Below are positions 30,254-44,133 of a DNA stretch of 64,000 nt, piece by piece. Below the pieces are notes generated by a model. It saw only the letters and a list, made by a program, of their open reading frames with translations, had not been told where the DNA came from and did no database searches. Source of the stretch: Deferribacteres bacterium (GTDB taxonomy: Bacteria > Zhuqueibacterota > Zhuqueibacteria > Zhuqueibacterales > Geothermadaptataceae); the NCBI GenBank assembly GCA_020633655.1, contig JACKDF010000002.1:75895-139894 (forward strand), given 5' to 3'. Made by a program: the position numbers and the translations under genes. Within the stretch, counting starts at the first letter, position 1, and the number at the start of each line of letters is the position of its first letter.

Positions 30254-30278
30254 CGCGGCCACGGTCATCGTGGCTGCG
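30254..30278. repeat. Hairpin family B copy (cgcggccacg-gtcat-cgtggctgcg), terminator-like, downstream of asnA
   Basis: 10-bp stem with one G-U position and the shared core GCCACGG/CCGTGGC. Confidence 0.75.
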
Positions 30279-30664: not shown

Positions 30665-33600
30665 ATGTGGCGTTCATTTGGAAGTTTAGTATTTCAAAGA
30701 TTTCGGTCATTTTCGCTAATTGTTTTCATTTTCTTGATGAGTTCAATTTCGGCATACAGCCAAAGCACTACAATTTATTATGAAGATTGGGAAGATGGCG
30801 TTGGACGATGGTTTGCAAGTAATGGAGTTTGGGAAGTTGGTATTCCATCCATTGGACCTGATAGTGCCCATTCAGGTCAAAAATGTGCAGCTACTATTTT
30901 GGATGGGAATTATCCAAGTAATGCAAATACTCGATTAGAAAGTCCAATTAGTCCTGTAATTTCACTACCAAGCATAAATTCCAATGAAAAAATACAATTA
31001 AAATTCTGGCACTGGTTTAGAAATTCAGACGACAAAGGCGAATTACAAATTTCGGTCGATGGATCGGATTGGCAAACAATTTCGAAACGACCTTTTCAAG
31101 GCACAAGCTACTGTTGGACACAATTCGTTGCAGACCTTTCAGAGTATGCAGGCTCAACAATTCGCCTTGGATTTTCTTTTTCCTCAGGTAATTATTACTC
31201 AGACAATGGCTGGTATATCGATGATATTCTTATTGAGAAAAAACAAGTCAAGTTTCAAAATCCAGAAGATTTCGAAACCGGAGTGGGGGATTGGAGTGCC
31301 GATAATGGTCTCTGGGAAGTTGGTATACCGACAAATGGGCCGCCTGCCACGCATTCTGGTCAGAATTGTATTGGGACTGTATTGGATAAAAATTATCCGG
31401 AAAATGCTGCTACCCGATTGATTAGTCCCCCGACGATATTGCCTATAGTTTCCCCAGGAGAAAAAATACAATTAAAATTCTGGCACTGGTTTAGAAATTC
31501 AGACGACAAAGGCGAATTACAAATTTCGGTCGATGGATCGGATTGGCAAACAATTTCGAAACGACCTTTTCAAGGCACAAGCTACTGTTGGACACAATTC
31601 GTTGCAGACCTTTCAGAGTATGCAGGCTCAACAATTCGCCTTGGATTTTCTTTTTCCTCAGGTAATTATTACTCAGACAATGGCTGGTATATCGATGATA
31701 TTCTTATTGAGAAAAAACAAGTCAAGTTTCAAAATCCAGAAGATTTCGAAACCGGAGTGGGGGATTGGAGTGCCGATAATGGTCTCTGGGAAGTTGGTAT
31801 ACCGACAAATGGGCCGCCTGCCACGCATTCTGGTCAGAATTGTATTGGGACTGTATTGGATAAAAATTATCCGGAAAATGCTGCTACCCGATTGATTAGT
31901 CCCCAAATTACTCTTAAACATAAACAAGGGGAGATTCCCATTCTATATTTCTGGCATTGGTTTAGATTAAGTGATGATCAGGGCTATGTTCAATTATCTG
32001 TTAATGGAGGGCCTTGGCGTACAGTTGCTGGACCTTTTAGTGGTAAGAGTGATGTGTGGTCACAAGCACCTCCTGTGGAACTTTCAACATATATTGATTC
32101 AACTGTAAGTATAGCGTTCTCTTTTTTCTCAGGTAATTATTATTCAGACAATGGCTGGTATATCGACGACATTAGAATCGAAGGAATAGATACGACATCA
32201 TATCGTCTTGACTTCATCACCCTCACCTACCAGCAAATTGATGCGTCCAATTTTTGCGATTCGTCAAAAGTGCATTCTTACGTCACGGTATCTGACAGCA
32301 GCGGTAATGCCCTGTCAGATCTTGGTGTGAATAATTTCTCAGTGAAAGAAGATGGCGAGGTGCAAAGTCCGATCACGGTGGAACACATCGGCGCAACTCA
32401 GCAACCAATTTCGGTGGCAATGGTTCTGGACCGCAGCAGTAGTATGGCGGGGCAGCCTCTGGTCGATGCAAAAAATGCGGCGATTGATTTTGTTCACAAA
32501 ATGGCAGATCACGATATGGGAGCGGTCATTAGTTTTGCGGCGGATGTTGTCGTTGATCAGGAATTTACAACCGACAAAGATTTGCTTGTTACTGCCATTG
32601 AGGCCATTAGCAATAGTGAATCAACCCACCACTATGACGGCCTCATGGAGGCGATCAATCAATGCGGCCCGTTGACTGGGAGAAAAGCAATAATTACATT
32701 GACAGACGGCAAGGATGGTAGCAGTGTCACAACCATCGATTCGTGCATCGCCGCTGCACAAAAAGCGCAACTACCCATTTTCACCATTGGTTTGCTTGGC
32801 GGATCAGGTATTGATGAGGAAGCTCTGAAAAAGATTGCAAGCGAAACAGGTGGCCTCTACTATTTTTCACCTTCATCTGAAAAATTGGCTTATATCTACA
32901 ATGTAATTGCTGAGCATATTCTGCAAAACCAGTACAAAATCACCTACTCCCCACGCAATACAAATGGTGATGGTGTAACCTCACGACTTGTTGAAATAAC
33001 GGCTTCATATAATGGGTCAACAGATTCAAAATCCAAAAGCTACATACCGGCGCCGTGTGATACTCTCGTTCCTTTCTACCCAATTACAGTGAGTGATACG
33101 ATACCGCCAAGCCAAAGATTCTGGCTTGATTTAAAAGTGGGCAAAGAGAATCAGCAAGTAAATGATTTATTTGGCATCGCGTTCAAATTGAAATACGACG
33201 AAAATGTTCTCATTTTTCACACAATAAAGGAGGATGAATTTATTGGCAATGATCCAGTGAGTCATTTTGAAGCGGATTCAATTTCCGGTATAATTGCCAG
33301 TGGAGTTTCACGTAAAGCCGGTTCAGGAGGTGTGAATGGTTTTGGCACCGTCGTAAAAGCCGAGTTTGAAGTCAGAAAGAATATCGCCGATGGAACGGTT
33401 GCATGGTTTGAATTGTTGGATGTCTATGCCATCAATTCCCAGGGTGTAGAAATTCGTCTGGATACATTACAATACAAAATCGTTGTTAGCAGTTGTCTCA
33501 CAACGTGGCCGGGAGATGCCAATAATGATGGTTTTGTCGATGAAAAGGATGTGCTGCCGATCGGATTTTTCTGGCATACAAGCGGAAATGAATCTCCCTG

Positions 33601-34504
33601 CCGGCAGGCGGCACCCTTCGAATGGCAACCATGCTGCTGTGTACCCTGGACGCCTACTGCTGCAACCTATGCGAACAGTAACGGTGATGGCATCATTGAC
33701 GAAAAAGATGTACTGGCATTGGGAATGAATTGGCATAAAGCTCATTCCATTTCAAAAAAACGTAGCGCTACGTCTTTGGCCTTTGATTCCGACAGTATGC
33801 TTATCGATATCCCAAACACGCTGCAAAAGGGACAGGAAATCGATATCAGAATCAGTGTACCGGAAACGAAAGATTTATTTGGTTTCTCCTTTAAGGCGCA
33901 ATTTGCAAACTATGAATTTCTGGAATTTCTTCAAATAAAGCCTGGTGGTTTTCTGGGAGGTAATTTGATATCCTTTGGCGATATTGATATAGAAAATGGG
34001 ATCGCATCTTTGGGACAAACGAAAAAATCGGGTGCAGCAGGAGCAAATGGATCAGGGTGTGTCGCAATTATTTTGTTGAAAGTTAAAGACACCGCACCGG
34101 AAAATTTCCGAATAAAGGTACATGTCACTGATATTACTGCAAATGATTCACAAGGCACAAGATTGGCATACAATGATGCAACTGTATACTTTACGAGTGT
34201 AAATTATCAGGCAATTCAATTGCCAACCAAGTTCGCTCTTGAACAAAATTATCCAAATCCTTTCAATCCGGAAACGACAATTTCCTATCAATTGCCACGT
34301 GCAACGAATGTGAAATTAATCGTGTTGAATTCAGTAGGACAACATGTCCGAACGCTTGTGGCGGAAGAAAAATCTGCTGGTCGGCATATAGTTCGGTGGA
34401 ATGGACTGAACGGCCTTGGCCGAAAGGTATCGAGTGGCATCTATTTTTACCAACTTGAAGCCGGTGAGTTCACCCAAATGAAAAAAATGATTCTACTTCA
34501 ATAA
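30665..34504 (+). CDS. Giant secreted multidomain protein: 3 MAM/jelly-roll-like N-terminal domains, vWA domain, cohesin-like / dockerin / cohesin-like modules, T9SS C-terminal sorting domain
   Basis: Signal peptide. Three 158-aa modules (W-VG-P-----HSG--C--T-LD-NYP-NA-TRL-SP ... FWHWF ... GNYYSDNGWYIDDI). MIDAS DRSSSM ... LTDGKDG. Dockerin loops GDANNDGFVDEKDV and NSNGDGIIDEKDV. C-terminal QNYPNPFNPETTISYQLP...GIYFYQL...KKMILLQ. Confidence 0.8.
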   Translation: MWRSFGSLVFQRFRSFSLIVFIFLMSSISAYSQSTTIYYEDWEDGVGRWFASNGVWEVGIPSIGPDSAHSGQKCAATILDGNYPSNANTRLESPISPVISLPSINSNEKIQLKFWHWFRNSDDKGELQISVDGSDWQTISKRPFQGTSYCWTQFVADLSEYAGSTIRLGFSFSSGNYYSDNGWYIDDILIEKKQVKFQNPEDFETGVGDWSADNGLWEVGIPTNGPPATHSGQNCIGTVLDKNYPENAATRLISPPTILPIVSPGEKIQLKFWHWFRNSDDKGELQISVDGSDWQTISKRPFQGTSYCWTQFVADLSEYAGSTIRLGFSFSSGNYYSDNGWYIDDILIEKKQVKFQNPEDFETGVGDWSADNGLWEVGIPTNGPPATHSGQNCIGTVLDKNYPENAATRLISPQITLKHKQGEIPILYFWHWFRLSDDQGYVQLSVNGGPWRTVAGPFSGKSDVWSQAPPVELSTYIDSTVSIAFSFFSGNYYSDNGWYIDDIRIEGIDTTSYRLDFITLTYQQIDASNFCDSSKVHSYVTVSDSSGNALSDLGVNNFSVKEDGEVQSPITVEHIGATQQPISVAMVLDRSSSMAGQPLVDAKNAAIDFVHKMADHDMGAVISFAADVVVDQEFTTDKDLLVTAIEAISNSESTHHYDGLMEAINQCGPLTGRKAIITLTDGKDGSSVTTIDSCIAAAQKAQLPIFTIGLLGGSGIDEEALKKIASETGGLYYFSPSSEKLAYIYNVIAEHILQNQYKITYSPRNTNGDGVTSRLVEITASYNGSTDSKSKSYIPAPCDTLVPFYPITVSDTIPPSQRFWLDLKVGKENQQVNDLFGIAFKLKYDENVLIFHTIKEDEFIGNDPVSHFEADSISGIIASGVSRKAGSGGVNGFGTVVKAEFEVRKNIADGTVAWFELLDVYAINSQGVEIRLDTLQYKIVVSSCLTTWPGDANNDGFVDEKDVLPIGFFWHTSGNESPCRQAAPFEWQPCCCVPWTPTAATYANSNGDGIIDEKDVLALGMNWHKAHSISKKRSATSLAFDSDSMLIDIPNTLQKGQEIDIRISVPETKDLFGFSFKAQFANYEFLEFLQIKPGGFLGGNLISFGDIDIENGIASLGQTKKSGAAGANGSGCVAIILLKVKDTAPENFRIKVHVTDITANDSQGTRLAYNDATVYFTSVNYQAIQLPTKFALEQNYPNPFNPETTISYQLPRATNVKLIVLNSVGQHVRTLVAEEKSAGRHIVRWNGLNGLGRKVSSGIYFYQLEAGEFTQMKKMILLQ
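30986..31904 (+). repeat. Perfect intragenic tandem duplication: two identical 445-bp copies (30986..31430 and 31460..31904), period 474 bp
   Basis: The two stretches read identically base for base in the listing. The identical off-frame ORFs at 31059..31421 and 31533..31895 in the ORF track confirm this. Confidence 0.9.
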
Positions 34505-34604: not shown

Positions 34605-35954
34605 TCACGAATTATCCAGTTTGTACTTTCGCATTTTTTTCCAAAGGGTTGCTCGATCGATCTCCATCATTTCAGCAGCGATTTGCTTCTTCCCTTTGGC
34701 CAGCACAAGATTCTTTTCAATAAACTCTTTCTCGTTTTGTTCAAGGAATTCCTTCAGGCTTCCAGTTTGTGATCGAAGTTGATCGTCCCGAGCATCTGAA
34801 TAAAGGGCGGTGAATATTGTCTCCTGATCTATTGTGAGTGCTTTTGTGAAAATAACCGCTTTCTCTATCAAATTTTCGAGTGCGCGAACGTTTCCCGGCC
34901 ATTTCTCGCTCATGATTAGATTCATTGCCTGAGGCGAAAATCCGGTAATCCTTTTATTGTATTTTTCACTGAACCTCATTCGAAAAAAATCTGCGAGAAG
35001 TGGAATATCGAGCTGGCGTGCCCGTAACGGAGGAATTTCCAGTTCAATTACACGAAGTCGGTGAAAAAGGTCCTCCCTGAAAGTACCATTTGCTACACGT
35101 CCCGCTAAATTTTGATTTGTCGCCGCAATTATTCTAACATCCACCGTTTGGATTTGAGTTGCACCGATTTTCTCAATTTCGCCATCCTGAAGAACGCGCA
35201 GTAATTTTGCCTGCGCCTGCAAGTTTAATTCTGCGATTTCATCAAGAAAGAGCGTCCCGTTATGCGCTAACTCAAACTTCCCGGTTTGATGCATGTAGGC
35301 GCCCGAGAAGCTTCCTTTTACGTGGCCAAAAAAAATACTTTCGATTAATGTTTCGGGAATCGCAGCGCAGTTCACTTTGATGTAGGGTTTGCCCGCACGA
35401 TTGCTATTGAAGTGAATTGCGCGGGCAACGAGTTCTTTACCTGTTCCGGTTTCACCATAAATCAATACTTTCGCATCCGTTGGGGCAATGGTTTTAATTT
35501 GATGAAAAATGGATTGCATCCCCTCGCTTTCACCAATCATTTGAAACTGCTTTTGTAGTTCATCTAAAAGTGTATGTTTCTCTTCCTGCCAGGATTTTTT
35601 AGCGATGGCATTTTGGACAGTCACAAGAAGACGGTCTGTTTCGACACCTTTTTCCAGAAAATCATACGCCCCTATTTTAATTGCCTTGACGGCAATTGCA
35701 AGAGAGCTTTGACCTGAAATCATGATGACCGGCACGTGCGGTTTTAGCCGAATTATTTGATCAAGAAGAGAAATTCCATCAATCCCAGGCATTTTGACAT
35801 CAAGCAAGATACAATCGTAGTTGTTACGATCAATTAGTTCGATCGCTGCTGTGGGATTATTACTGGTTTCTACGCGATATTTTCTGTGTTGCAGCAATCC
35901 GGAAACTATATCCAAAAAATGTGTATCATCATCAACGGCCAAAATACTATACAT
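34605..35954 (-). CDS. Sigma-54-dependent response regulator (NtrC family: receiver + AAA+ + Fis-type HTH)
   Basis: Receiver ILLDVKMPGIDG. Walker A GETGTGKE. GAFTGA-equivalent loop GSFSGA. ESIFFGH. C-terminal HTH KKQIAAEMMEIDRATLWKKMRKY. Confidence 0.9.
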   Translation of the reverse strand: MYSILAVDDDTHFLDIVSGLLQHRKYRVETSNNPTAAIELIDRNNYDCILLDVKMPGIDGISLLDQIIRLKPHVPVIMISGQSSLAIAVKAIKIGAYDFLEKGVETDRLLVTVQNAIAKKSWQEEKHTLLDELQKQFQMIGESEGMQSIFHQIKTIAPTDAKVLIYGETGTGKELVARAIHFNSNRAGKPYIKVNCAAIPETLIESIFFGHVKGSFSGAYMHQTGKFELAHNGTLFLDEIAELNLQAQAKLLRVLQDGEIEKIGATQIQTVDVRIIAATNQNLAGRVANGTFREDLFHRLRVIELEIPPLRARQLDIPLLADFFRMRFSEKYNKRITGFSPQAMNLIMSEKWPGNVRALENLIEKAVIFTKALTIDQETIFTALYSDARDDQLRSQTGSLKEFLEQNEKEFIEKNLVLAKGKKQIAAEMMEIDRATLWKKMRKYKLDNS

Positions 35955-35970
35955 TCATATATCCTTACTT

Positions 35971-38469
35971 TCAGTTATCATTTGAAATGTGGCGACCTTT
36001 GGAATGGATCGGTAGTGTTATTTCAAAGACAGTTCCATTTTCCGTTTTACTTTCAACGCTCAGTTTTCCATTGTGCTGGTTTACGATTTGTTTGGCAAAA
36101 AGCAATCCCATTCCGGAACCTTCCGGTTTTGTACTATAGTTCGGTTCAAAGATTTTTTCGAGCTGGGCCGGAGTGATGCCGTGCCCGGTATCTTCTACAC
36201 GAATTAATATGTACTGGTCTGGCATCCCAGCCAAATTTTGAAGCGTATTAACCTGAATCGTAATTTTGCCTTTCCCATCTAACGCATCAATTGCATTTTC
36301 AATGAGTATATGCATGAGAAGCTCGATTTGCCTTTTATCCCATGCGGCCATTCTATATTTGGTCATAAAGATCAAATTAATTTTCAGGTTTTCTGTTACA
36401 AACGCCTTAAAATGATCGATGCACTCAGAAAGCAGGTTCTCAATATGCACTGGCTTGAGGTTTATCTCCGCCAAGTCCGTGAATTTCGAAAAATTCTTGC
36501 TGATGCTGATAATCCTTCTGATTTCTGAATTAGCGACTTCAATTTCATTCTGCAGTTTATCCGCAATTGCGGGTGATTCATCCATGAGTTGCAAATATAT
36601 AGTCTGTAATTTAATCTGCACTCCAGCCAGGGGATTTTTGATATCGTGCACCATACGCCGAACGTTGCGTTGCCAGTTTTGTTGCCGCTCCAAAAGGACT
36701 TGTTCTGTGTTGTCACGTATCTCAATCAAATAAGCATTTCCAAACTGCGAGATGTTCAGGAGGGGTGTTATAGTGATACTGCCTATAAAACTCGATGAAG
36801 CGCTGGAAAACGAGATAGTCTCATTTATTTGTCTGGATTCTTTCAAGGCAAGGTGAATAAGTTCGCAGATTTCTTTGCGCTCCTGCAACAGTGAAAAGAC
36901 ATCCTGTTCAGTTTCGGAGTGCTTCGCAAGCATTAATGTTTGTTCGACTTTATGATTTATTGTGAGAATCCGGCCTTTGTTGTTAATGAGTAATATGGCA
37001 TTGTCAGATTCTTTCAGTGAAAAGCGGAAGTAGGCAAAGTAGATGCGGAGGCGAATAAAAACAAGCTGCAGAGCGTAGAGCATTGACGAGTAAAGAACGA
37101 CCTGAAGAATAAACAACGGCCACAACCATGCATGCATAAAAGAAGGATTCAATTTGGTTAAATAGGAATATTTCGATGTGTTTAAAGCAATTTCATCCTG
37201 CTCTCCGGGTGTCTTTTTCAAGCTGATACGATCAAGCTTTTCACCGTCCTCCATTTCGAAAGAAGCAATTTTTTCCATCTTATCATTCATGAAGTAGACG
37301 TTGTTTCCCGCGAGATAGTAAAAATTGCTTTTCCCATCGTTATCAATATCAACGGTTTCACTCAAGGTTTTCGTTTCATCAATTAAGATGCAATCCAGCA
37401 CAACCAGGTTGGTATCAATGGTGAGTTTTTTTGACAGCTGCCATCCTTTGGAATAAACCTGTCCGCGTCTTTTTTCATCGAATTTGAAAACATCCGTCGT
37501 ATAGCCATTTAATTTTTTTTCAGCAACTATATGGAAATACTTGTCCAGTTTCAAAATTTCTGTATTCCGGTCTGCCTGTGTTGCGATGAGATAAACAAAT
37601 GGATTTGGTTTAAAATCACCCGGAGTAAATTTGATCCCGCCAAACGTCCCTTCCTTTTTCATGGAATACAATAAGTCAAGTTGCTGATTGAAAACAAAAA
37701 ACCAGGAAAAAGCATCGCTATATTTTACCGAGTCGGGAAAATTGCTTGTTGCGCTGGTCCCGATTAGAATTTCATCTTTCCCATCAGCATTTAGATCAAA
37801 CATATCTGAGTAACCCAACGCAGCATTGAACCGGAATTCATTTATAAGCGCGTGCTTTTTCAGATCAAATTCGAATATTCCCCTTGGTTTGAGCGAGCGC
37901 CCTGAAAAAATTGTAAAAAATAATGACATTGGTTTGTCCGGTGAATACAAAGCATGAATCCTTCCAATATCCCAATTCTTCTGTGTATTGTGTTCCCGTC
38001 CATGAAGTACAAACGTATCAAAAATCTCTCTTTTTGCTGGATCCGTAATGTCAATTATTGAAAGAAAAAGCGAATCCCTGCCTTGGGTCCACACGATAAG
38101 CTCATCAATTTGGTCTTCCGTTACATCCAGAAATTGCAGATGGTGAATCAGAATACTGTCCTGCAGATACCACTGATTGATGAGTCTTTCACCACCGGAA
38201 TTTACATTGATATAATATGTATCCTGCGGGCGTGGATGGTTATAGATTTCAATGCGCTCGCTGCTACCGTCGTTATCTAAATCCCTGTATAAAACCTGTG
38301 AAATACGCGCAACTGGTATTTTGGGTTCACTGAGTACAAATTCATACTGCAACGTATTCACAGAAAACCAGGCAGTGATGGTGATTGCGCACGTTAGAGC
38401 AAGTAGGAAAACGATAATCCGGGTTTTTGTTAAAGCAGACTTCATTGACAGTACGGCATCCTGTGGCAT
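35971..38469 (-). CDS. Sensor histidine kinase with a large extracytoplasmic FG-GAP/VCBS-like (DxDxDG) domain, TM, PAS-like, HisKA and HATPase_c
   Basis: N-terminal TM. Periplasmic DLDNDGSSE, DLNADGKDE and DIDNDGKSN loops. Second TM (LWPLFILQVVLYSSMLYAL). H-box HDIKNPLAGV. N/G boxes ENAIDAL, EDTGHGI and GSGMGL. Confidence 0.85.
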   Translation of the reverse strand: MPQDAVLSMKSALTKTRIIVFLLALTCAITITAWFSVNTLQYEFVLSEPKIPVARISQVLYRDLDNDGSSERIEIYNHPRPQDTYYINVNSGGERLINQWYLQDSILIHHLQFLDVTEDQIDELIVWTQGRDSLFLSIIDITDPAKREIFDTFVLHGREHNTQKNWDIGRIHALYSPDKPMSLFFTIFSGRSLKPRGIFEFDLKKHALINEFRFNAALGYSDMFDLNADGKDEILIGTSATSNFPDSVKYSDAFSWFFVFNQQLDLLYSMKKEGTFGGIKFTPGDFKPNPFVYLIATQADRNTEILKLDKYFHIVAEKKLNGYTTDVFKFDEKRRGQVYSKGWQLSKKLTIDTNLVVLDCILIDETKTLSETVDIDNDGKSNFYYLAGNNVYFMNDKMEKIASFEMEDGEKLDRISLKKTPGEQDEIALNTSKYSYLTKLNPSFMHAWLWPLFILQVVLYSSMLYALQLVFIRLRIYFAYFRFSLKESDNAILLINNKGRILTINHKVEQTLMLAKHSETEQDVFSLLQERKEICELIHLALKESRQINETISFSSASSSFIGSITITPLLNISQFGNAYLIEIRDNTEQVLLERQQNWQRNVRRMVHDIKNPLAGVQIKLQTIYLQLMDESPAIADKLQNEIEVANSEIRRIISISKNFSKFTDLAEINLKPVHIENLLSECIDHFKAFVTENLKINLIFMTKYRMAAWDKRQIELLMHILIENAIDALDGKGKITIQVNTLQNLAGMPDQYILIRVEDTGHGITPAQLEKIFEPNYSTKPEGSGMGLLFAKQIVNQHNGKLSVESKTENGTVFEITLPIHSKGRHISNDN

Positions 38470-38588
38470 TTATTTAAACTTGGAGGAACGGACATCTGCG
38501 AATTGCGGACAAACAAATGTAACGTATCCAAACATAAATCCAAACGTGAAGTTACGCTCGCGGACCGGTTTTATCCGGTGCCATACCT

Positions 38589-38602
38589 TTGCCAAATGGC
38601 AA
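38589..38602. promoter_or_regulatory. Palindrome TTGCCA-AA-TGGCAA, candidate enhancer (UAS) site about 80 bp upstream of the candidate sigma-54 promoter
   Basis: Perfect 6+2+6 inverted repeat in the divergent intergenic region. Its function is purely inferred. Confidence 0.2.
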
Positions 38603-38677
38603 CGTTCACACATTAAAACGTTGTCGTTTGGAGACGTTTTTTTCTTGGGTCATAACCGGATTGTGCAGAGGTTGGCA

Positions 38678-38693
38678 TGGCACAGTAGTTGTG
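38678..38693 (+). promoter_or_regulatory. Candidate sigma-54 (-24/-12) promoter TGGCAC-agtag-TTGTg
   Basis: Matches TGGCAC-N5-TTGC at 9 of 10 conserved positions with correct spacing. It lies in the divergent region next to the NtrC-family regulator operon. Confidence 0.35.
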
Positions 38694-38703
38694 TATTCAG
38701 AAG

Positions 38704-38838
38704 AATTGATTTCCTGATGAAATCACAAGTTCCAGCCCGGCGATTCCCTGAGGGGAGGAATTGCCGGGACTTGCTTGAATCGGCTAAAAGGAGCCGACCA
38801 CACAGGTAAATCCTAAGCGTGATCAGGATTACCTTTTT
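38704..38838 (+). ncRNA. Candidate structured leader or small RNA downstream of the sigma-54-like promoter (three hairpins, the last followed by T5)
   Basis: Hairpins at 38708..38724 (gatttc/gaaatc), 38736..38768 (cccggcgattcc/ggaattgccggg, 12 bp with one G-U) and 38805..38833 (ggtaaatcct/aggattacc), followed by ttttt. No expression evidence. Confidence 0.25.
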
Positions 38839-38898
38839 CATATAAATAAAATCATTCTACATCGCTACTCAACCGGAACTCCATAAAAGGAGAAAAAA

Positions 38899-39984
38899 AT
38901 GAAAAAACTACTCGCTATTGTATTTGTTTCTGCCCTCGTTTTTCTAACCAGCTGTGATAAAAAAACGCCTATAGCTCCCGACAATGAATACCAATCAACA
39001 AATAAACAAGTCCTGTTGAAATCCACAGCAGATTTAAATTTAGGGTGTTTGGTTTTTGGTCCGACCATCTTCGAAAGATACACCGGAAAACCGGAAACAG
39101 AAGTCATTGAATTTTCATTACAAAACATGACATCAAGTTATCTAATTATATTGACAAATGGCGATCAATCTAAAAATTCAAAGGTTTCGAGTTGTACTGT
39201 TGTTATCAACGATGAAACAATAATTTCTACAAACGAACTAAATAAAAACGTAGATAAACTAGAAAAAGAAATAAGCCTTGATTTTGAAAATGAAATTAGT
39301 GTCCAGGTTAATGGGAAACCGGGAAGTTTTTTAACCATAACAATTTACGAAATATCTTCCTGTCCATGCTCTTTAACTGATATAGATGGCAATGTTTATG
39401 CAACAATTCAAATTGGAGATCAATGCTGGATGATTGAAAATCTAAGAGTAACCCATTACCGCAACGGCGAAGCAATTCCTAACTTAACCAGTAATTCTGA
39501 TTGGAGCAATACTTCTTCAGGAGCATACTGTGCCTATGGTAACGACAATGCATACATCAGTCAATATGGACTGCTGTACAATGCCTACGCCGTCGAAGAC
39601 AGCAGGAATATTGCGCCTGAAGGCTGGCATGTGGCAACAGACGCAGAATGGAAAGAACTGGAAAGTTATCTCGGAATTTCTGCAACAGATTTGGATATGA
39701 TTGGATGGCGTGGTACAGATGAAGGGGATAAAATAAAATCAGAAACAGGTTGGAATGCCGGCGGAAATGGAACGAATGAAAGTGGTTTTACTGCAATACC
39801 AGCTGGCTATCGCAATCGATTTGGTACCTTTAAAAATTTAGGTAATGTGGCGGATTTCTGGACTGCAACTGAAAACGATATGAGTACATCCTGGGCAAGA
39901 GAATTGTATTATTCGCATTCAGAAGTATACCGAACCTACGGCAGCAAACCAAATGGTTTTAGTGTGCGACTTGTTCGCGACTAA
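38899..39984 (+). CDS. Lipoprotein with C-terminal Fibrobacter succinogenes major paralogous (FISUMP) domain
   Basis: Lipobox LTSC. DIDGNVYATIQIGDQCWMIENLRVTHYRNGEAIP ... GLLYNAYAV ... IAPEGWHVATDAEWKELESYLG ... GFSVRLVRD is the classic FISUMP signature. Confidence 0.8.
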   Translation: MKKLLAIVFVSALVFLTSCDKKTPIAPDNEYQSTNKQVLLKSTADLNLGCLVFGPTIFERYTGKPETEVIEFSLQNMTSSYLIILTNGDQSKNSKVSSCTVVINDETIISTNELNKNVDKLEKEISLDFENEISVQVNGKPGSFLTITIYEISSCPCSLTDIDGNVYATIQIGDQCWMIENLRVTHYRNGEAIPNLTSNSDWSNTSSGAYCAYGNDNAYISQYGLLYNAYAVEDSRNIAPEGWHVATDAEWKELESYLGISATDLDMIGWRGTDEGDKIKSETGWNAGGNGTNESGFTAIPAGYRNRFGTFKNLGNVADFWTATENDMSTSWARELYYSHSEVYRTYGSKPNGFSVRLVRD

Positions 39985-39994
39985 CTTTTACTCA

Positions 39995-40023
39995 CTTACA
40001 GCCATGGCGACCGTGGCTGTAAG
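39995..40023. repeat. Hairpin family B copy (cttacagccatgg-cga-ccgtggctgtaag) downstream of the FISUMP gene
   Basis: 13-bp stem with one mismatch and the shared GCCATGG/CCGTGGC core. Confidence 0.75.
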
Positions 40024-40137
40024 ATGCCAATTTTAAGCGGTTAAATTAATCTGTTACAACCAGATTCGATAACAAATATCATTTATTTTTTGAAAAGGGT
40101 AAAATTTCATTAAATCTTGGGCAACACGGAGGAATAG

Positions 40138-43100
40138 ATGATCTTCAGGCGCACTGCATTTTACTTAACAATTCTATTGACCGTAGGAAACTTCGCAAAT
40201 TTATCCGCCAAAACAATCTCACTTGCCGACAGTCTCTTCAAAGCGAATGTCTACTCGGCAACCGGAGAGAACTGGACAACAATACAATCAAATCTTGTTC
40301 CCAGCTATTTCGGTTGGGAAAATCCAGCCGGTTCGGCTCTTTTCATTAAGGAGTTTCAACCTGTAGGCGGCGTTCTCAAAGAATGCCTGAGTCAACACCC
40401 GGAATGGAATCCCGTTATCGCGGCGACTGTTGCTGAATTTCAGGTTGAAAATCCACGCACGTTCTCAACATATTATGGATTTGGGGATGGCCAGATCGAA
40501 GGTGATGCCCGGTTTATCATTCAGGTATTGCATAACAGCATTTACACAACACTTTTGGATTCACTTGTAGCCGACAGCAACAATTGGCGGTATTTCGTCG
40601 GTGATTTATCGGCATGGAATACGGAATCCGTCACTTTGCGGCTGATCATCGAGCCGATAGATGATCCAAATGACGATTGGGCGCGGTGGGGAAACCCATC
40701 GGTTATCACAGAAGGCCAGCATCCGGCTTATCTGTCTGCCGCGTACACAAATTTAAGCACAACCTGTTCCTATCCCATCAATGATCCCCTGCTTATTGGC
40801 TTAAACAATGTTCGGCATGTCAATTTTCACCCCAATCCATTCGGGAATAACGAGCCGGTACTTGCTGTGACAAACTACTTGCAGAATGGTACCGTCCATT
40901 TAATGGTAAAATCAGCAACAGAAAATACATTTGAGATAAAATGGACAGCCCCACTTTTTCAGAATTATGGTGGAAAAGATACACCCCGCTACGTCTTGTT
41001 CGGTGATTTAGATAATGACGGCATCATCGAAATTATCTATCCGTTAAACGACCTTGGCATTCTCATTTATGAATGGGATGGTATACCCGGAAGCTACAAC
41101 TTTGGTTCGAGTCCGTCCCAGATCATCCAGGAACCTACACTTCTCACACAAATTCATGGCCGGGTCGAGTATATCGCTCATACGGATATTGACAATGATG
41201 GTATGAATGAATTGCTCTTTCCCTATGACCAGGAGGCGTTTGCAGGCAACGATGATCTCGAGTGTTTTTATATTGTCAGCGCCAACGGGAACTGGTCAAC
41301 GAACAATGCAGGGAATTCGTCCCTCAATCGTGAATTCCAAATGCAAAGAGCCTACCGTCTCGAATACGGTATGGGTGGCAGTCCCTTTGCGATGATTCCT
41401 GCAGATTTTGACGGGGACGGTCAAAAAGAAGTGCTGATCCACAATTGGAATTTCAAGAACATTACTATTTTACAAGTAACAGGACCGGACACTTACCAAT
41501 TGGCATCGACCGAAAATGGCAAACAGCATTTGTATTTAACCGAACCCAATGATGATGTCGCATTGTTTGGTGGCATGGCTTGTGATATCGATAACGATGG
41601 CCGGGATGAAATTTACCTCCCCACCACAACACCCAATTGGAGTACGCACGAAAATGACGGTATCGTGCATATGATTTCCTATGATGGTAACCAATCGTTA
41701 AACGAGATTGATGAATCAAATGTGGTAACGTTGAATTTAGGTAGTGTTAGTGATGATAGATATCTTTTAGGTTTTGGGACCGGTGATATTGACAATGATG
41801 GCAAACCCAACATATATTTTTCTGCTAAGGGCGGCATATTTTTAGTGTCTGCCGAATTTCAAGGCGGAAATAAAAAAAATCAAAACAACTGGCTATTTGA
41901 AAGACTGTTTATCGGGAGTCCAACGGGTACCGAATCGGGTTTTGCAATAATCGAAGATAAATTTGGTAACCGGGATTCCGTTGCACACTATTTTGGCGGC
42001 AACATCTCAAAAATTCATGCCAATTACACTGACTTTGATAACGATGGTTACGAAGATATTATCGTGCCCTATCAGGGATTTTCTCAAAATGTGGAGTATG
42101 CAGAAAGTGTTTGGGATTCGCAATCGGGAGAGTATATAACCTCCCGATATACATCGCCAAATGATAAAAGGTGGTCAATTCGTTTACTGGAGGCGAAAAC
42201 GCCCTATACCAAATCGCTGCATGTCATTTCTCCAAATGGAAGCGATTTTTTTGAACCGGATCACGCGCATGGTATCGCCTGGAACGCCTCATTTATCGAC
42301 AGTATTCTGATCGAGTACAGCGATGACGCCGGTTCCAACTGGCACACCATCGTTTCCTCATTTCCGGCACGAGAAAGACATTTCAGGTGGATGGTTCCAT
42401 CGGGAATTGCTTCCGAAAACTGCCTGGTGCGAATCACATCCCTCGAACCTTCCGGTTTAACAGATGCGAGTGACAATCCTTTTACGATTATCGAAAACAC
42501 GGCACCGACAATAACCTTTCCGGCATTATCAGATACCATATCGCCGGGCAATGCCTATACTTTCACACCCGGCATTGAAGACACTGAGCAGGAAGATGTG
42601 CAGTTAACCATCCTGGAAGCACCGGCGTGGTTAGCTGTTGTTGATAATCTAAGCCTGAGTGGTACACCTGGCAATTCCGGAAGCGGGGAGTTCAGCATTG
42701 CATTTCGTGCGGATGATCAATATGGCGGCGTTACAGATACCTCCTTTATTCTGACAGTTTTGAATAACCAGCCACCCATTCCGATAACGGATCTTCAGTT
42801 GATTGAAGAACCGGAAGAAACGACTTTATGGTTAAAATGGACAGCCCCCGGTTCAAATTGGGATCAGGGTGATGCGACTAGTTATGATTTGCGATACAGC
42901 GAATCACCTATTACGGAAAGTAATTTTAGCAGTGCGCCGGAAATCAATTTTTTGACTTCTCCCGTTAGCCCCTGGCCGTATGCGCTTCCCAATAGTGCAG
43001 GATTTCCTGACAGTGTTCAGGTCACAGGCCTGCAGAGCTCGACACGATACTATTTCGCTATAAAGTCAATCAACAACAAGGGACAAGAGTCGGCTATTTC

Positions 43101-44133
43101 GAATGTTTTAAGTGTAATTACGGCAGGAACACAGAGCAATTTTCCACCTGAAGTGATTACACATGGCGCCAGTTCTGCCGTGATAAATGAGGCCTATAAC
43201 TACAATACGACGAACAAAGCGCTGGCTGTTGGCTCTGATCCAATCATCTGGTCGAAAATTAAAGGCCCGGATGGACTTCTAATAAATTCGGATGGCTCGA
43301 TAAACTGGACGCCGACGGAACTCGACGCATCAAATGGTTCCTTGCTTTATATCATTCGGGCGTCAAACACTTTTGGCAGCGCGGATGATAGTGTCACCGT
43401 TGCTTTTTCCACAAACAATAAAACAGAAACGGTAACATCTTCGACATCAGCGCAATTCCTCGATTTCTCAGAATCCGGGGCCACCATGCCTGATTTTGCG
43501 AATAATTCTGATTTATCGGGTGCGATTACTGTAAGTGAAATCGACACGATCCCTGAGAATCCTGGAAGTACACCAGACTTCGACTTTGGAAATCAGTACT
43601 GGGTCATCGATTCCTCAGTGCCGGATAACACATTTTCCACAACCCTCGTTTTTTATTACGATGAAAATCAGCTGGGCGATATTTCCGAAAATGAACTCAT
43701 CATTGCGCATCGCGAAAATGAAGAAGTGGAATGGACTGTATATCCTGCACAACAAAAAAACACGGATCAAAATACAATAACTTTATTGAACGTTCATCAA
43801 TTCTCGATGTTTTCCACCGCTGATAATTTATTGGCTACGTCGGTTATGAATGAATTATCAGTGATTTCTTCGGATTTTTATTTATACCAAAATTATCCCA
43901 ACCCTTTCAATCCGGTGACAACAATTGCATTCGAAATTGCCGAACCGCAAATTGTCATTGTAAAAATCTATAATATCCAGGGGAGATTGATCAAAACGCT
44001 GGTGAATCAGGAAAAAGCAGCAGGTAGACACCGAATCATTTTCGATGGTGCCAATCTGGTGTCCGGAATTTATTTTTACAGCGTTCAGGCAGGGCAATAT
44101 ATTGCGACGAAAAAAATGCTACTGGTGAAGTGA
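40138..44133 (+). CDS. Giant secreted FG-GAP/VCBS-repeat protein with Ig-like and fibronectin-III-like modules and T9SS C-terminal sorting domain
   Basis: Signal peptide. DxDxDG loops DLDNDGIIE, DIDNDGMNE, DFDGDGQKE, DIDNDGRDE, DIDNDGKPN and DFDNDGYED. Putative Ig module PAWLAVVDNLSLSGTPGNSGSGEF. C-terminal QNYPNPFNPVTTIAFEIA...GIYFYSV...KKMLLVK. Confidence 0.8.
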   Translation: MIFRRTAFYLTILLTVGNFANLSAKTISLADSLFKANVYSATGENWTTIQSNLVPSYFGWENPAGSALFIKEFQPVGGVLKECLSQHPEWNPVIAATVAEFQVENPRTFSTYYGFGDGQIEGDARFIIQVLHNSIYTTLLDSLVADSNNWRYFVGDLSAWNTESVTLRLIIEPIDDPNDDWARWGNPSVITEGQHPAYLSAAYTNLSTTCSYPINDPLLIGLNNVRHVNFHPNPFGNNEPVLAVTNYLQNGTVHLMVKSATENTFEIKWTAPLFQNYGGKDTPRYVLFGDLDNDGIIEIIYPLNDLGILIYEWDGIPGSYNFGSSPSQIIQEPTLLTQIHGRVEYIAHTDIDNDGMNELLFPYDQEAFAGNDDLECFYIVSANGNWSTNNAGNSSLNREFQMQRAYRLEYGMGGSPFAMIPADFDGDGQKEVLIHNWNFKNITILQVTGPDTYQLASTENGKQHLYLTEPNDDVALFGGMACDIDNDGRDEIYLPTTTPNWSTHENDGIVHMISYDGNQSLNEIDESNVVTLNLGSVSDDRYLLGFGTGDIDNDGKPNIYFSAKGGIFLVSAEFQGGNKKNQNNWLFERLFIGSPTGTESGFAIIEDKFGNRDSVAHYFGGNISKIHANYTDFDNDGYEDIIVPYQGFSQNVEYAESVWDSQSGEYITSRYTSPNDKRWSIRLLEAKTPYTKSLHVISPNGSDFFEPDHAHGIAWNASFIDSILIEYSDDAGSNWHTIVSSFPARERHFRWMVPSGIASENCLVRITSLEPSGLTDASDNPFTIIENTAPTITFPALSDTISPGNAYTFTPGIEDTEQEDVQLTILEAPAWLAVVDNLSLSGTPGNSGSGEFSIAFRADDQYGGVTDTSFILTVLNNQPPIPITDLQLIEEPEETTLWLKWTAPGSNWDQGDATSYDLRYSESPITESNFSSAPEINFLTSPVSPWPYALPNSAGFPDSVQVTGLQSSTRYYFAIKSINNKGQESAISNVLSVITAGTQSNFPPEVITHGASSAVINEAYNYNTTNKALAVGSDPIIWSKIKGPDGLLINSDGSINWTPTELDASNGSLLYIIRASNTFGSADDSVTVAFSTNNKTETVTSSTSAQFLDFSESGATMPDFANNSDLSGAITVSEIDTIPENPGSTPDFDFGNQYWVIDSSVPDNTFSTTLVFYYDENQLGDISENELIIAHRENEEVEWTVYPAQQKNTDQNTITLLNVHQFSMFSTADNLLATSVMNELSVISSDFYLYQNYPNPFNPVTTIAFEIAEPQIVIVKIYNIQGRLIKTLVNQEKAAGRHRIIFDGANLVSGIYFYSVQAGQYIATKKMLLVK

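Follow-up and report, generated by a model that had tools for sequence, protein, structure and literature searches.

A propeller-sensor kinase, an NtrC-type regulator and a sigma-54 promoter facing surface-protein genes in a Calditrichota genome

Genes of the locus and the sensor domain of the kinase

The window analysed here is a 64,000-nt stretch of contig JACKDF010000002.1 (assembly GCA_020633655.1, positions 75,895 to 139,894 of the forward strand) from a Deferribacteres bacterium, whose phylum we call Calditrichota. The window lies on contig C12 of a genome (G000) of 5.5 Mb and 4095 open reading frames (ORFs), and all positions without a contig label are those of the window. Positions 34605 to 44133 encode a sensor histidine kinase and an NtrC-family response regulator and, on the other strand, a FISUMP-domain lipoprotein and a 1331-aa protein (hereafter the giant) classed as cargo of the type IX secretion system (T9SS). 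The spacer between the two divergent gene pairs carries a predicted sigma-54 promoter, two palindromes and a structured leader. The main features are as follows:

34605-35954, minus strand: NtrC-family response regulator (bacterial enhancer-binding protein; Pfam Response_reg 7.6e-29, Sigma54_activat 5.4e-69, AAA_lid_14, HTH_8 1.1e-6)
35971-38469, minus strand: sensor histidine kinase (Pfam HATPase_c 3.1e-23, HisKA 3.7e-4)
38508-38563, no strand assigned: near-invariant block of ~55 nt that differs from the sister genome at two bases only (spacer alignment)
38589-38631, no strand assigned: candidate enhancer (upstream activator sequence) of two palindromes (repeat search and sister genome)
38678-38693, plus strand: predicted sigma-54 (-24/-12) promoter TGGCAC-AGTAG-TTGTG (TGGCACAGTAGTTGTG), found by pattern match in the divergent spacer
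38704-38898, plus strand: structured 5′ leader or possible small RNA (sRNA), predicted RNA fold -57.7 kcal/mol, z = -3.5
38899-39984, plus strand: FISUMP-domain lipoprotein, lipobox LTSC (Pfam Fib_succ_major 1.2e-51)
40138-44133, plus strand: FG-GAP giant, 1331-aa T9SS cargo (Pfam/NCBIfam FG-GAP_3 1.5e-13, He_PIG, fn3, Por_Secre_tail)

Five ORFs that an earlier note had described from the sequence alone, namely the four above and a vWA/cohesin giant, were found at the coordinates it gave, and Pfam and NCBIfam back their identities. The strand layout is also as described, with kinase and regulator divergent from the FISUMP gene and the giant and convergent with the vWA giant. The nearest public proteins to the window genes are labelled Calditrichaeota or Calditrichia.

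The regulator has a REC phosphoacceptor at Asp52, a Walker A motif of GETGTGKE, an L1 loop of GSFSGA and a Fis-type helix-turn-helix, and its nearest NCBIfam families (AtoC, NtrC and ZraR) each score below the equivalog cut-off. The kinase is composed of a first transmembrane segment (TM1, about residues 17-37), a periplasmic propeller (residues 38-446, nucleotides 37132-38358), a second transmembrane segment (TM2, about 447-470), a PAS-like domain (491-586), a DHp domain with His608, and a CA domain that extends to residue 821. The HisKA match is below the gathering score; the motif HDIKNPL is nonetheless invariant across the sensor family. The giant consists of a unique N-terminal domain, an FG-GAP propeller with six calcium loops (residues ~230-690), He_PIG, fn3, and a C-terminal sorting domain.

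The earlier note had given the kinase an ectodomain of about 430 aa with DxDxDG loops; the loops stand, and the length is ~409 aa (residues 38-446). Specifically, DLDNDGSSE, DLNADGKDE and DIDNDGKSN all fit D-x-[DN]-x-D-G, at residues 63, 225 and 374, and a degenerate fourth loop, DVTEDQIDE, lies near residue 115. The six DxDxDG loops that had been ascribed to the giant are likewise present. At least three such loops occur in just 19 of the 4095 ORFs, and two of these ORFs 1.7 kb apart are more than chance would give, on a count made post hoc.

Taken alone, the kinase scores 22.5 bits against Pfam FG-GAP_3, below the cut-off of 26.9, and it is not among the ~17 FG-GAP proteins recovered by a genome scan with PF13517. 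However, 17 of 18 aligned relatives match FG-GAP_3 (E <= 0.01, best 1.3e-13) and 10 of 18 match FG-GAP, so that the assignment stands on the relatives, the profile comparison and the predicted propeller fold. The AlphaFold model of the ectodomain, built from a 19-row alignment, is all-beta with ~30 strands (predicted local distance difference test, pLDDT, 86; predicted template-modelling score, pTM, 0.85); the full-length kinase model has a pLDDT of 80.7. Because a Foldseek search with the full-length model matched kinase cores only, the ectodomain was refolded alone, and it then matched 7-bladed propellers at probability 1.0 with moderate template-modelling scores of 0.4-0.55, ITFG2 in KICSTOR among them; the blade number is that of the Foldseek matches. 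The nearest solved proteins by sequence profile are the PL11 lyases YesW and YesX, a PL11 protein, CRTAC1 and ITFG2. Invariant in the sensor family are a PRG motif (195-197), N243, D252 and the loop at 225-233. By profile and model, the kinase ectodomain is thus a predicted calcium-loop beta-propeller of the FG-GAP/VCBS type.

The same genome encodes two ~1300-aa proteins that join FG-GAP calcium loops with a kinase core (G000:C15:9727-13593, minus strand, and G000:C12:193101-197039, plus strand) and resemble the 1080-aa VCBS/UnbV_ASPIC/GAF kinases of Calditrichia (P0042-P0045). At least two architectures thus couple FG-GAP propellers to kinases in the phylum.

The divergent spacer and its transcript

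The predicted sigma-54 promoter lies 221 nt before the FISUMP ATG and faces the FISUMP and giant genes. The sigma factor itself is encoded in the genome (rpoN, Sigma54_DBD 2e-61 at G000:C56), together with about 30 enhancer-binding proteins. Within the upstream regions of the genome, TGGCA-N6-TTGC occurs 29 times, versus 3 and 2 times at spacings one base off, and TGGCA-N6-TTGT occurs 28 times, versus 4 and 3, so that the class TGGCAY-N5-TTGY is enriched ~8-10-fold at the correct spacing. Because TTGT is as frequent as TTGC at that spacing, the -12 element in this genome is TTGY, which is useful for the prediction of sigma-54 regulons in the phylum. The signal is found in upstream regions only: a whole-genome count of TGGCAC-N5-TTGC shows no enrichment (12 sites, vs 15 and 17 at incorrect spacings). 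A position weight matrix trained without the window site scores it 17.9, the median of the training set being 19.9. Among the 56 predicted sigma-54 promoters of the window genome, 8 (~14%) precede a T9SS cargo gene, with a background of 3.7%.

Upstream of the promoter lie the two palindromes. The perfect one, TTGCCAAATGGCAA, occupies 38589-38602, ~85 bp from the promoter, and a degenerate copy follows 28 bp further on at 38617-38631; the predicted transcription start, placed near 38704 and 195 nt from the FISUMP ATG, lies ~108 and ~80 nt downstream of their respective centres. The pattern TTGCC-N4-GGCAA has 17 sites in the 5.5 Mb of the genome, and the TTGCCAAATGGCAA site is the only intergenic one.

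An orthologue search with the kinase across 167 genomes of the phylum yielded one true orthologue, at 73-75% identity, in a sister genome of the same genus (G139, contig QQUM01000305). The next closest relative, on metagenome contig L002, is 47-54% identical; a metagenome locus search with the kinase returned no further orthologues, and two other near-complete genomes of the genus contain neither a kinase nor a giant orthologue. In the sister genome (L001/L060), an 85-86% identical giant orthologue is directly divergent from the kinase, with no FISUMP gene between them, and the promoter (TGGCATAGTAGTTGTG in L001) points straight at the giant orthologue. The two genomes share 82% identity over the spacer, versus 73-75% at protein level for the kinase, and the spacer keeps the promoter, both palindromes (TTGCCGATTGGCAA and TTGCCAATTGACAA), the ~55-nt block and leader hairpins H1 and H2.

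The ~55-nt block adjoins the kinase start and is more conserved than coding DNA. It holds a direct repeat, TCCAAAC-N5-TCCAAAC, flanked by GTAAC...GTTAC, and is possibly the promoter/operator of the kinase operon. A Bacteroidetes-type promoter (TTTG-N19-TAnnTTTG) was considered in this block and dropped, the motif and spacing not being enriched in the genome; TTGAC-N18-TAnnnT is enriched, with 77 sites vs 26 on the opposite strand.

In the window, the first gene 3′ of the promoter is the FISUMP gene. Its protein is one of three FISUMP proteins in the genome (38899-39984, G000:C4:123443-124015 and G000:C1:537032-537622), and none was found in any of nine other genomes of the taxonomic family. 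Given this absence, the gene would seem to have been inserted recently, separating the promoter from the giant, and the distribution suggests recent acquisition and spread of FISUMP within the lineage.

The predicted leader folds into four hairpins, and a further hairpin follows the FISUMP stop codon:

38707-38725, plus strand: H1 (RNA fold)
38736-38768, plus strand: H2, core (RNA fold)
38780-38797, plus strand: H3 (RNA fold)
38804-38834, plus strand: H4 (RNA fold)
39995-40023, plus strand: hairpin with a 10-bp stem (CTTACAGCCA...TGGCTGTAAG) behind the stop codon of the FISUMP gene (seen in the sequence itself)

A G-U pair of window H2 is a G-C pair in the sister genome. The hairpin at 39995-40023 was not flagged by the terminator scan, and it may be a terminator or an element of the repetitive extragenic palindromic (REP) type. 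It shares a GCCACGG/CCGTGGC-like core with another hairpin at 30255-30278; the two follow consecutive genes, and they are REP-like elements or terminators.

We propose that the locus is a self-contained module in which the propeller kinase and the NtrC-type regulator would drive the sigma-54 promoter toward the surface-protein genes, and we give this reading a probability of roughly 60%. The earlier note had already proposed that the pair drives sigma-54 expression of the surrounding surface proteins. That proposal is supported by a promoter in the spacer that faces the FISUMP gene and the giant, by a palindrome unique among intergenic regions, by the conservation of both and by the presence of rpoN; the support does not extend to the vWA giant, for which no tie to the pair was found.

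Several observations weigh against the proposal. The -12 element of the window promoter is TTGT, not the textbook TTGC, though TTGT is equally common in this genome, and the L1 loop of the regulator is GSFSGA, also in the sister genome, and not GAFTGA (the other family partners have GAFTGA in 10 cases, GSFTGA in 3 and GAFSGA in 1). A weak sigma-70-like match (9 of 12 positions) lies 48 nt upstream of the ATG of the giant. In the window H4 is followed by UUUUUC, a terminator-like arrangement, and the transcript may stop before the coding genes; in the sister genome it is H2 that is followed by a terminator-like stretch, TTTTGCTT. Co-transcription of the giant with the FISUMP gene is uncertain because of the hairpin between the two genes. 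Finally, synteny of kinase and giant is found in one other genome, of the same genus, and therefore represents one evolutionary event.

The terminator-like features carry the most serious alternative, which we consider unlikely yet clearly worth weighing: the sigma-54 promoter would make only a short, terminator-ended sRNA of ~70-135 nt, acting in trans or as an attenuator, and the FISUMP gene and the giant would use their own promoters. The strong fold of the leader fits this alternative, as do the TTTTTC run behind window H4 and the persistence in the sister genome of H1 and H2, with TTTTGCTT behind H2, despite a different downstream gene. In addition, the start codons are 195-250 nt from the predicted transcription start, versus 57-97 nt in relatives. 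Against it, Rfam contains no matching family (nothing at E <= 1 over 34-45 kb), and the terminator scan of the window flagged neither H2 nor H4. The leader is known from two sequences only, a DNA search of 29 genomes of the order having recovered the sister genome and no third copy. Furthermore, other loci of the sensor family have a sigma-54 site directly before a cargo gene, without a hairpin, and the promoter scan gave no convincing alternative for the FISUMP gene.

Neighbours of the sensor family across the phylum

When the full-length alignment was used to look for homologues, generic kinases dominated the matches. Relatives of the ectodomain occur in 75 of the 167 phylum genomes, nearly all of them encoded by open frames 800-900 aa long. 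At E <= 1e-3 the ectodomain hits 746 cluster representatives (clusters at 50% identity), 250 of them at E <= 1e-10, and none of the ten cluster representatives that were looked up bears a functional name. The sensor family amounts to hundreds of unnamed clusters in Calditrichota, with at least one named member in Ignavibacteriales. In our literature search, neither sensor kinases of the FG-GAP type nor the regulation of Calditrichota T9SS cargo by sigma-54 turned up as the subject of a paper.

We examined 26 family loci, and in nearly every one with enough contig an NtrC-type regulator adjoins the kinase. Of the 26, 13 have a gene with a T9SS C-terminal sorting domain no more than two genes away from the pair. 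Such genes make up 16 of 83 neighbours of the pair (19%), versus 3.7% of ORFs genome-wide, a roughly five-fold excess that is indicative only because related genomes are not independent. The cargo beside family pairs comprises a C10 peptidase, a PETase-like esterase, a GH16 protein with CBM4_9, MAM/InhA-like and beta-helix proteins, and further Kelch/dockerin, GH3, GH43 and heparinase-like proteins. In L050 and L051, sigma-54 sites precede T9SS cargo genes by 68-97 nt, and another lies upstream of a C10-peptidase giant, also T9SS cargo, in L043; L002, L003 and L005, read by eye, have near-matches only, with two mismatches.

The four genes linked in the earlier note fare differently among relatives: the kinase-NtrC pair recurs, the giant stands alongside it only in the sister genome, and the FISUMP gene accompanies it in no relative.

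These distributions bear on a second alternative, in which the adjacency is fortuitous and the two-component system controls distant genes, with no role for the neighbouring surface proteins. T9SS cargo genes are common (at least 152 of the 4095 ORFs of the window genome), half of the family loci have no cargo gene within two genes, and the synteny with the giant is confined to one sister genome. We nevertheless judge this alternative improbable: the promoter is oriented toward the genes for surface proteins, no further intergenic copy of the palindrome exists in the genome, the sister genome keeps promoter, palindrome and giant as a set, and sorting-domain genes are some five-fold over-represented within two positions of the pair.

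Some family loci differ from the window in their make-up. In L006 (5351-10719), two propeller-sensor kinases are directly adjacent, with one NtrC-type regulator after them; L042 (G154:C35) has two such kinases split by small ORFs, with the regulator upstream, and G153:C962 also has a nearby pair. The paired kinases hint at heteromeric or dual-input sensing in these relatives. L049 (at 3619) and L055 (at 10249) each have a canonical sigma-54 site (TGGCAC-N5-TTGCA) in the gap from kinase to regulator gene, where the window has none; the site suggests that in those lineages the regulator activates its own expression.

The earlier note had further taken the sensor ectodomain to be paralogous to the neighbouring giant. 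A specific relationship of this kind is not supported, the giant being no closer to the sensor than unlinked FG-GAP proteins. In a pairwise alignment of ectodomain and giant, BLASTP aligns short stretches around the calcium loops only (best E 0.001). A genome-wide protein search with the ectodomain does not recover the giant, its only matches being the query kinase and a kinase fragment encoded on a different contig. A hidden Markov model of the sensor family matches six FG-GAP proteins of the genome and ranks the giant third (3e-7), behind two unlinked proteins (4e-10 and 5e-9). Consistently, hhalign gives the giant 95.3% (2e-8) and the unlinked C12_404455, ~290 kb away, 96.1% (3e-9). All similarity tests agree, and the two propellers therefore belong to a common superfamily, with no recent duplication.

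A reading in which the ectodomain is a paralogue of the giant's propeller, and the kinase monitors the giant's ligand or the giant itself, can draw on DxDxDG-looped FG-GAP-type propellers in both proteins, on an hhalign alignment of ~290-306 columns at 96% probability, on the scarcity of FG-GAP or loop-rich proteins (~17-19 among the 4095 ORFs) and on the joint occurrence of kinase and giant orthologues in the window genome and G139 only, but we regard it as very improbable, given 17% identity over the aligned columns, an unlinked protein that scores as well or better, a genome-wide search that misses the giant, the other loci among the 26 of the family, which have no FG-GAP neighbour and carry proteases, esterases, glycosidases and lectin-like proteins as cargo, and relatives of the giant that have no two-component system beside them. 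These giant-propeller relatives (33-40% identity, seven other genomes) sit in a different conserved context, with no adjoining kinase, regulator or sigma-54 site.

On the other side of the regulator lies one further surface-protein gene:

30665-34504, plus strand: vWA/cohesin/choice-of-anchor-J T9SS giant, 1279 aa (Pfam/NCBIfam VWA, Cohesin, Por_Secre_tail)

Its 428-bp upstream region contains no TGGCA-type sigma-54 site. A divergent vWA protein in L002 was considered as its orthologue and rejected as not homologous. By these comparisons the vWA giant is a neighbour only, connected to the module neither by a sigma-54 site nor by conservation. The protein contains two letter-for-letter identical modules of ~150 aa (KIQLKFWHWFRNSDDKGELQISVDG..., 30986-31904), which, read from the sequence, are a very recent in-frame tandem duplication.

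Proposed circuit and related systems

Starting from what sequence analysis provides (the architecture, the fold, the promoter class, the uniqueness and conservation of the palindrome, and rpoN), we infer the ligand, the binding of the regulator to the palindromes and the extent of the transcript as follows. The propeller would sense a periplasmic or surface-derived ligand, such as a fragment of an extracellular polymer, or would bind a glycan or protein in a calcium-dependent manner. The signal would pass through TM2 and the PAS-like domain to the DHp/CA core, which would autophosphorylate at His608 and transfer the phosphate to Asp52 of the co-transcribed NtrC-type regulator. The regulator would bind the tandem TTGCC-N4-GGCAA palindromes, ~80 and ~108 nt upstream of the start, and its AAA+ ring would open the sigma-54 promoter TGGCAC-N5-TTGT at 38678-38693. 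The resulting transcript would comprise the structured leader and then the FISUMP gene, probably with read-through to the giant; the sister genome has no FISUMP insertion, and there the first gene 3′ of the promoter is the giant.

A broader and more tentative reading, possible but less probable than its negation, is that pairs of FG-GAP-propeller kinase and NtrC-type regulator form a regulatory layer across the phylum. A given paralogue would respond to a single extracellular substrate and, through sigma-54, turn on a T9SS hydrolase or adhesin of its own, and the window locus would add a second checkpoint in the form of a conserved leader or sRNA with a terminator. Little is known of how T9SS exports, at least 152 of them in the window genome, are controlled in Calditrichota and relatives. 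The locus offers a concrete circuit of one sensor, one regulator, one genome-unique candidate enhancer site and one sigma-54 promoter, and it points to a large uncharacterised family of propeller kinases beside secreted proteases, esterases and glycosidases. The ligand of the propeller would reveal what these sediment bacteria sense before they make costly giant surface proteins.

The circuit can be compared with four kinds of known system. By its domains the pair is of the NtrB/NtrC type; its propeller input is uncharacterised and its output is likely T9SS cargo. Like AtoS/AtoC, ZraS/ZraR and GlrK/GlrR, it joins a HisKA/HATPase kinase and a REC-AAA+-HTH_8 regulator in one operon, with AtoS/AtoC, NtrC and ZraR as the best NCBIfam matches and with a -24/-12 promoter and upstream palindromes in the adjacent spacer. 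It is not orthologous to any named system, because its equivalog scores are far below the cut-offs (155 vs 646 bits for AtoS). Unlike those systems, its sensor is a ~409-aa beta-propeller and not a PAS/Cache, ZraP-linked or four-helix periplasmic domain, and its apparent output is T9SS-secreted and lipoprotein surface proteins.

With regard to the leader, sigma-54-dependent sRNA genes stand beside their activator operons at qrr1-luxO and glmY-glrK. The window shares with them a sigma-54 promoter and upstream activator sites by the regulator operon, and after these a short predicted RNA that folds strongly and whose end resembles a terminator. It differs in having no Rfam match and in that the RNA directly precedes protein genes on the same strand and may be their leader.

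The propeller resembles other FG-GAP/VCBS propellers (integrin alpha, ITFG2, CRTAC1 and YesW/YesX) in its DxDxDG loops between blades. In contrast to these, it is the input domain of a histidine kinase, has three canonical loops only, and is below threshold in Pfam.

A parallel in overall logic is with the hybrid two-component systems of Bacteroides polysaccharide utilisation loci (e.g. BT4663), in which a kinase with a periplasmic beta-propeller sensor is encoded beside the secreted or surface proteins under its control; a phylum has many such paralogues, and their neighbouring cargo differs from one to the next. Here, by contrast, the Pfam scan shows no Reg_prop or Y_Y_Y and the propeller is of the FG-GAP type; kinase and regulator are separate, and the output is NtrC/sigma-54 and not a fused AraC domain; and no SusC/SusD pair lies between 28 and 52 kb in the window. 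Common to both are a propeller sensor on a kinase encoded near secreted or surface proteins and the variety of the cargo. If it holds, the phylum-wide layer would follow a logic analogous to that of polysaccharide utilisation loci, assembled from different parts.

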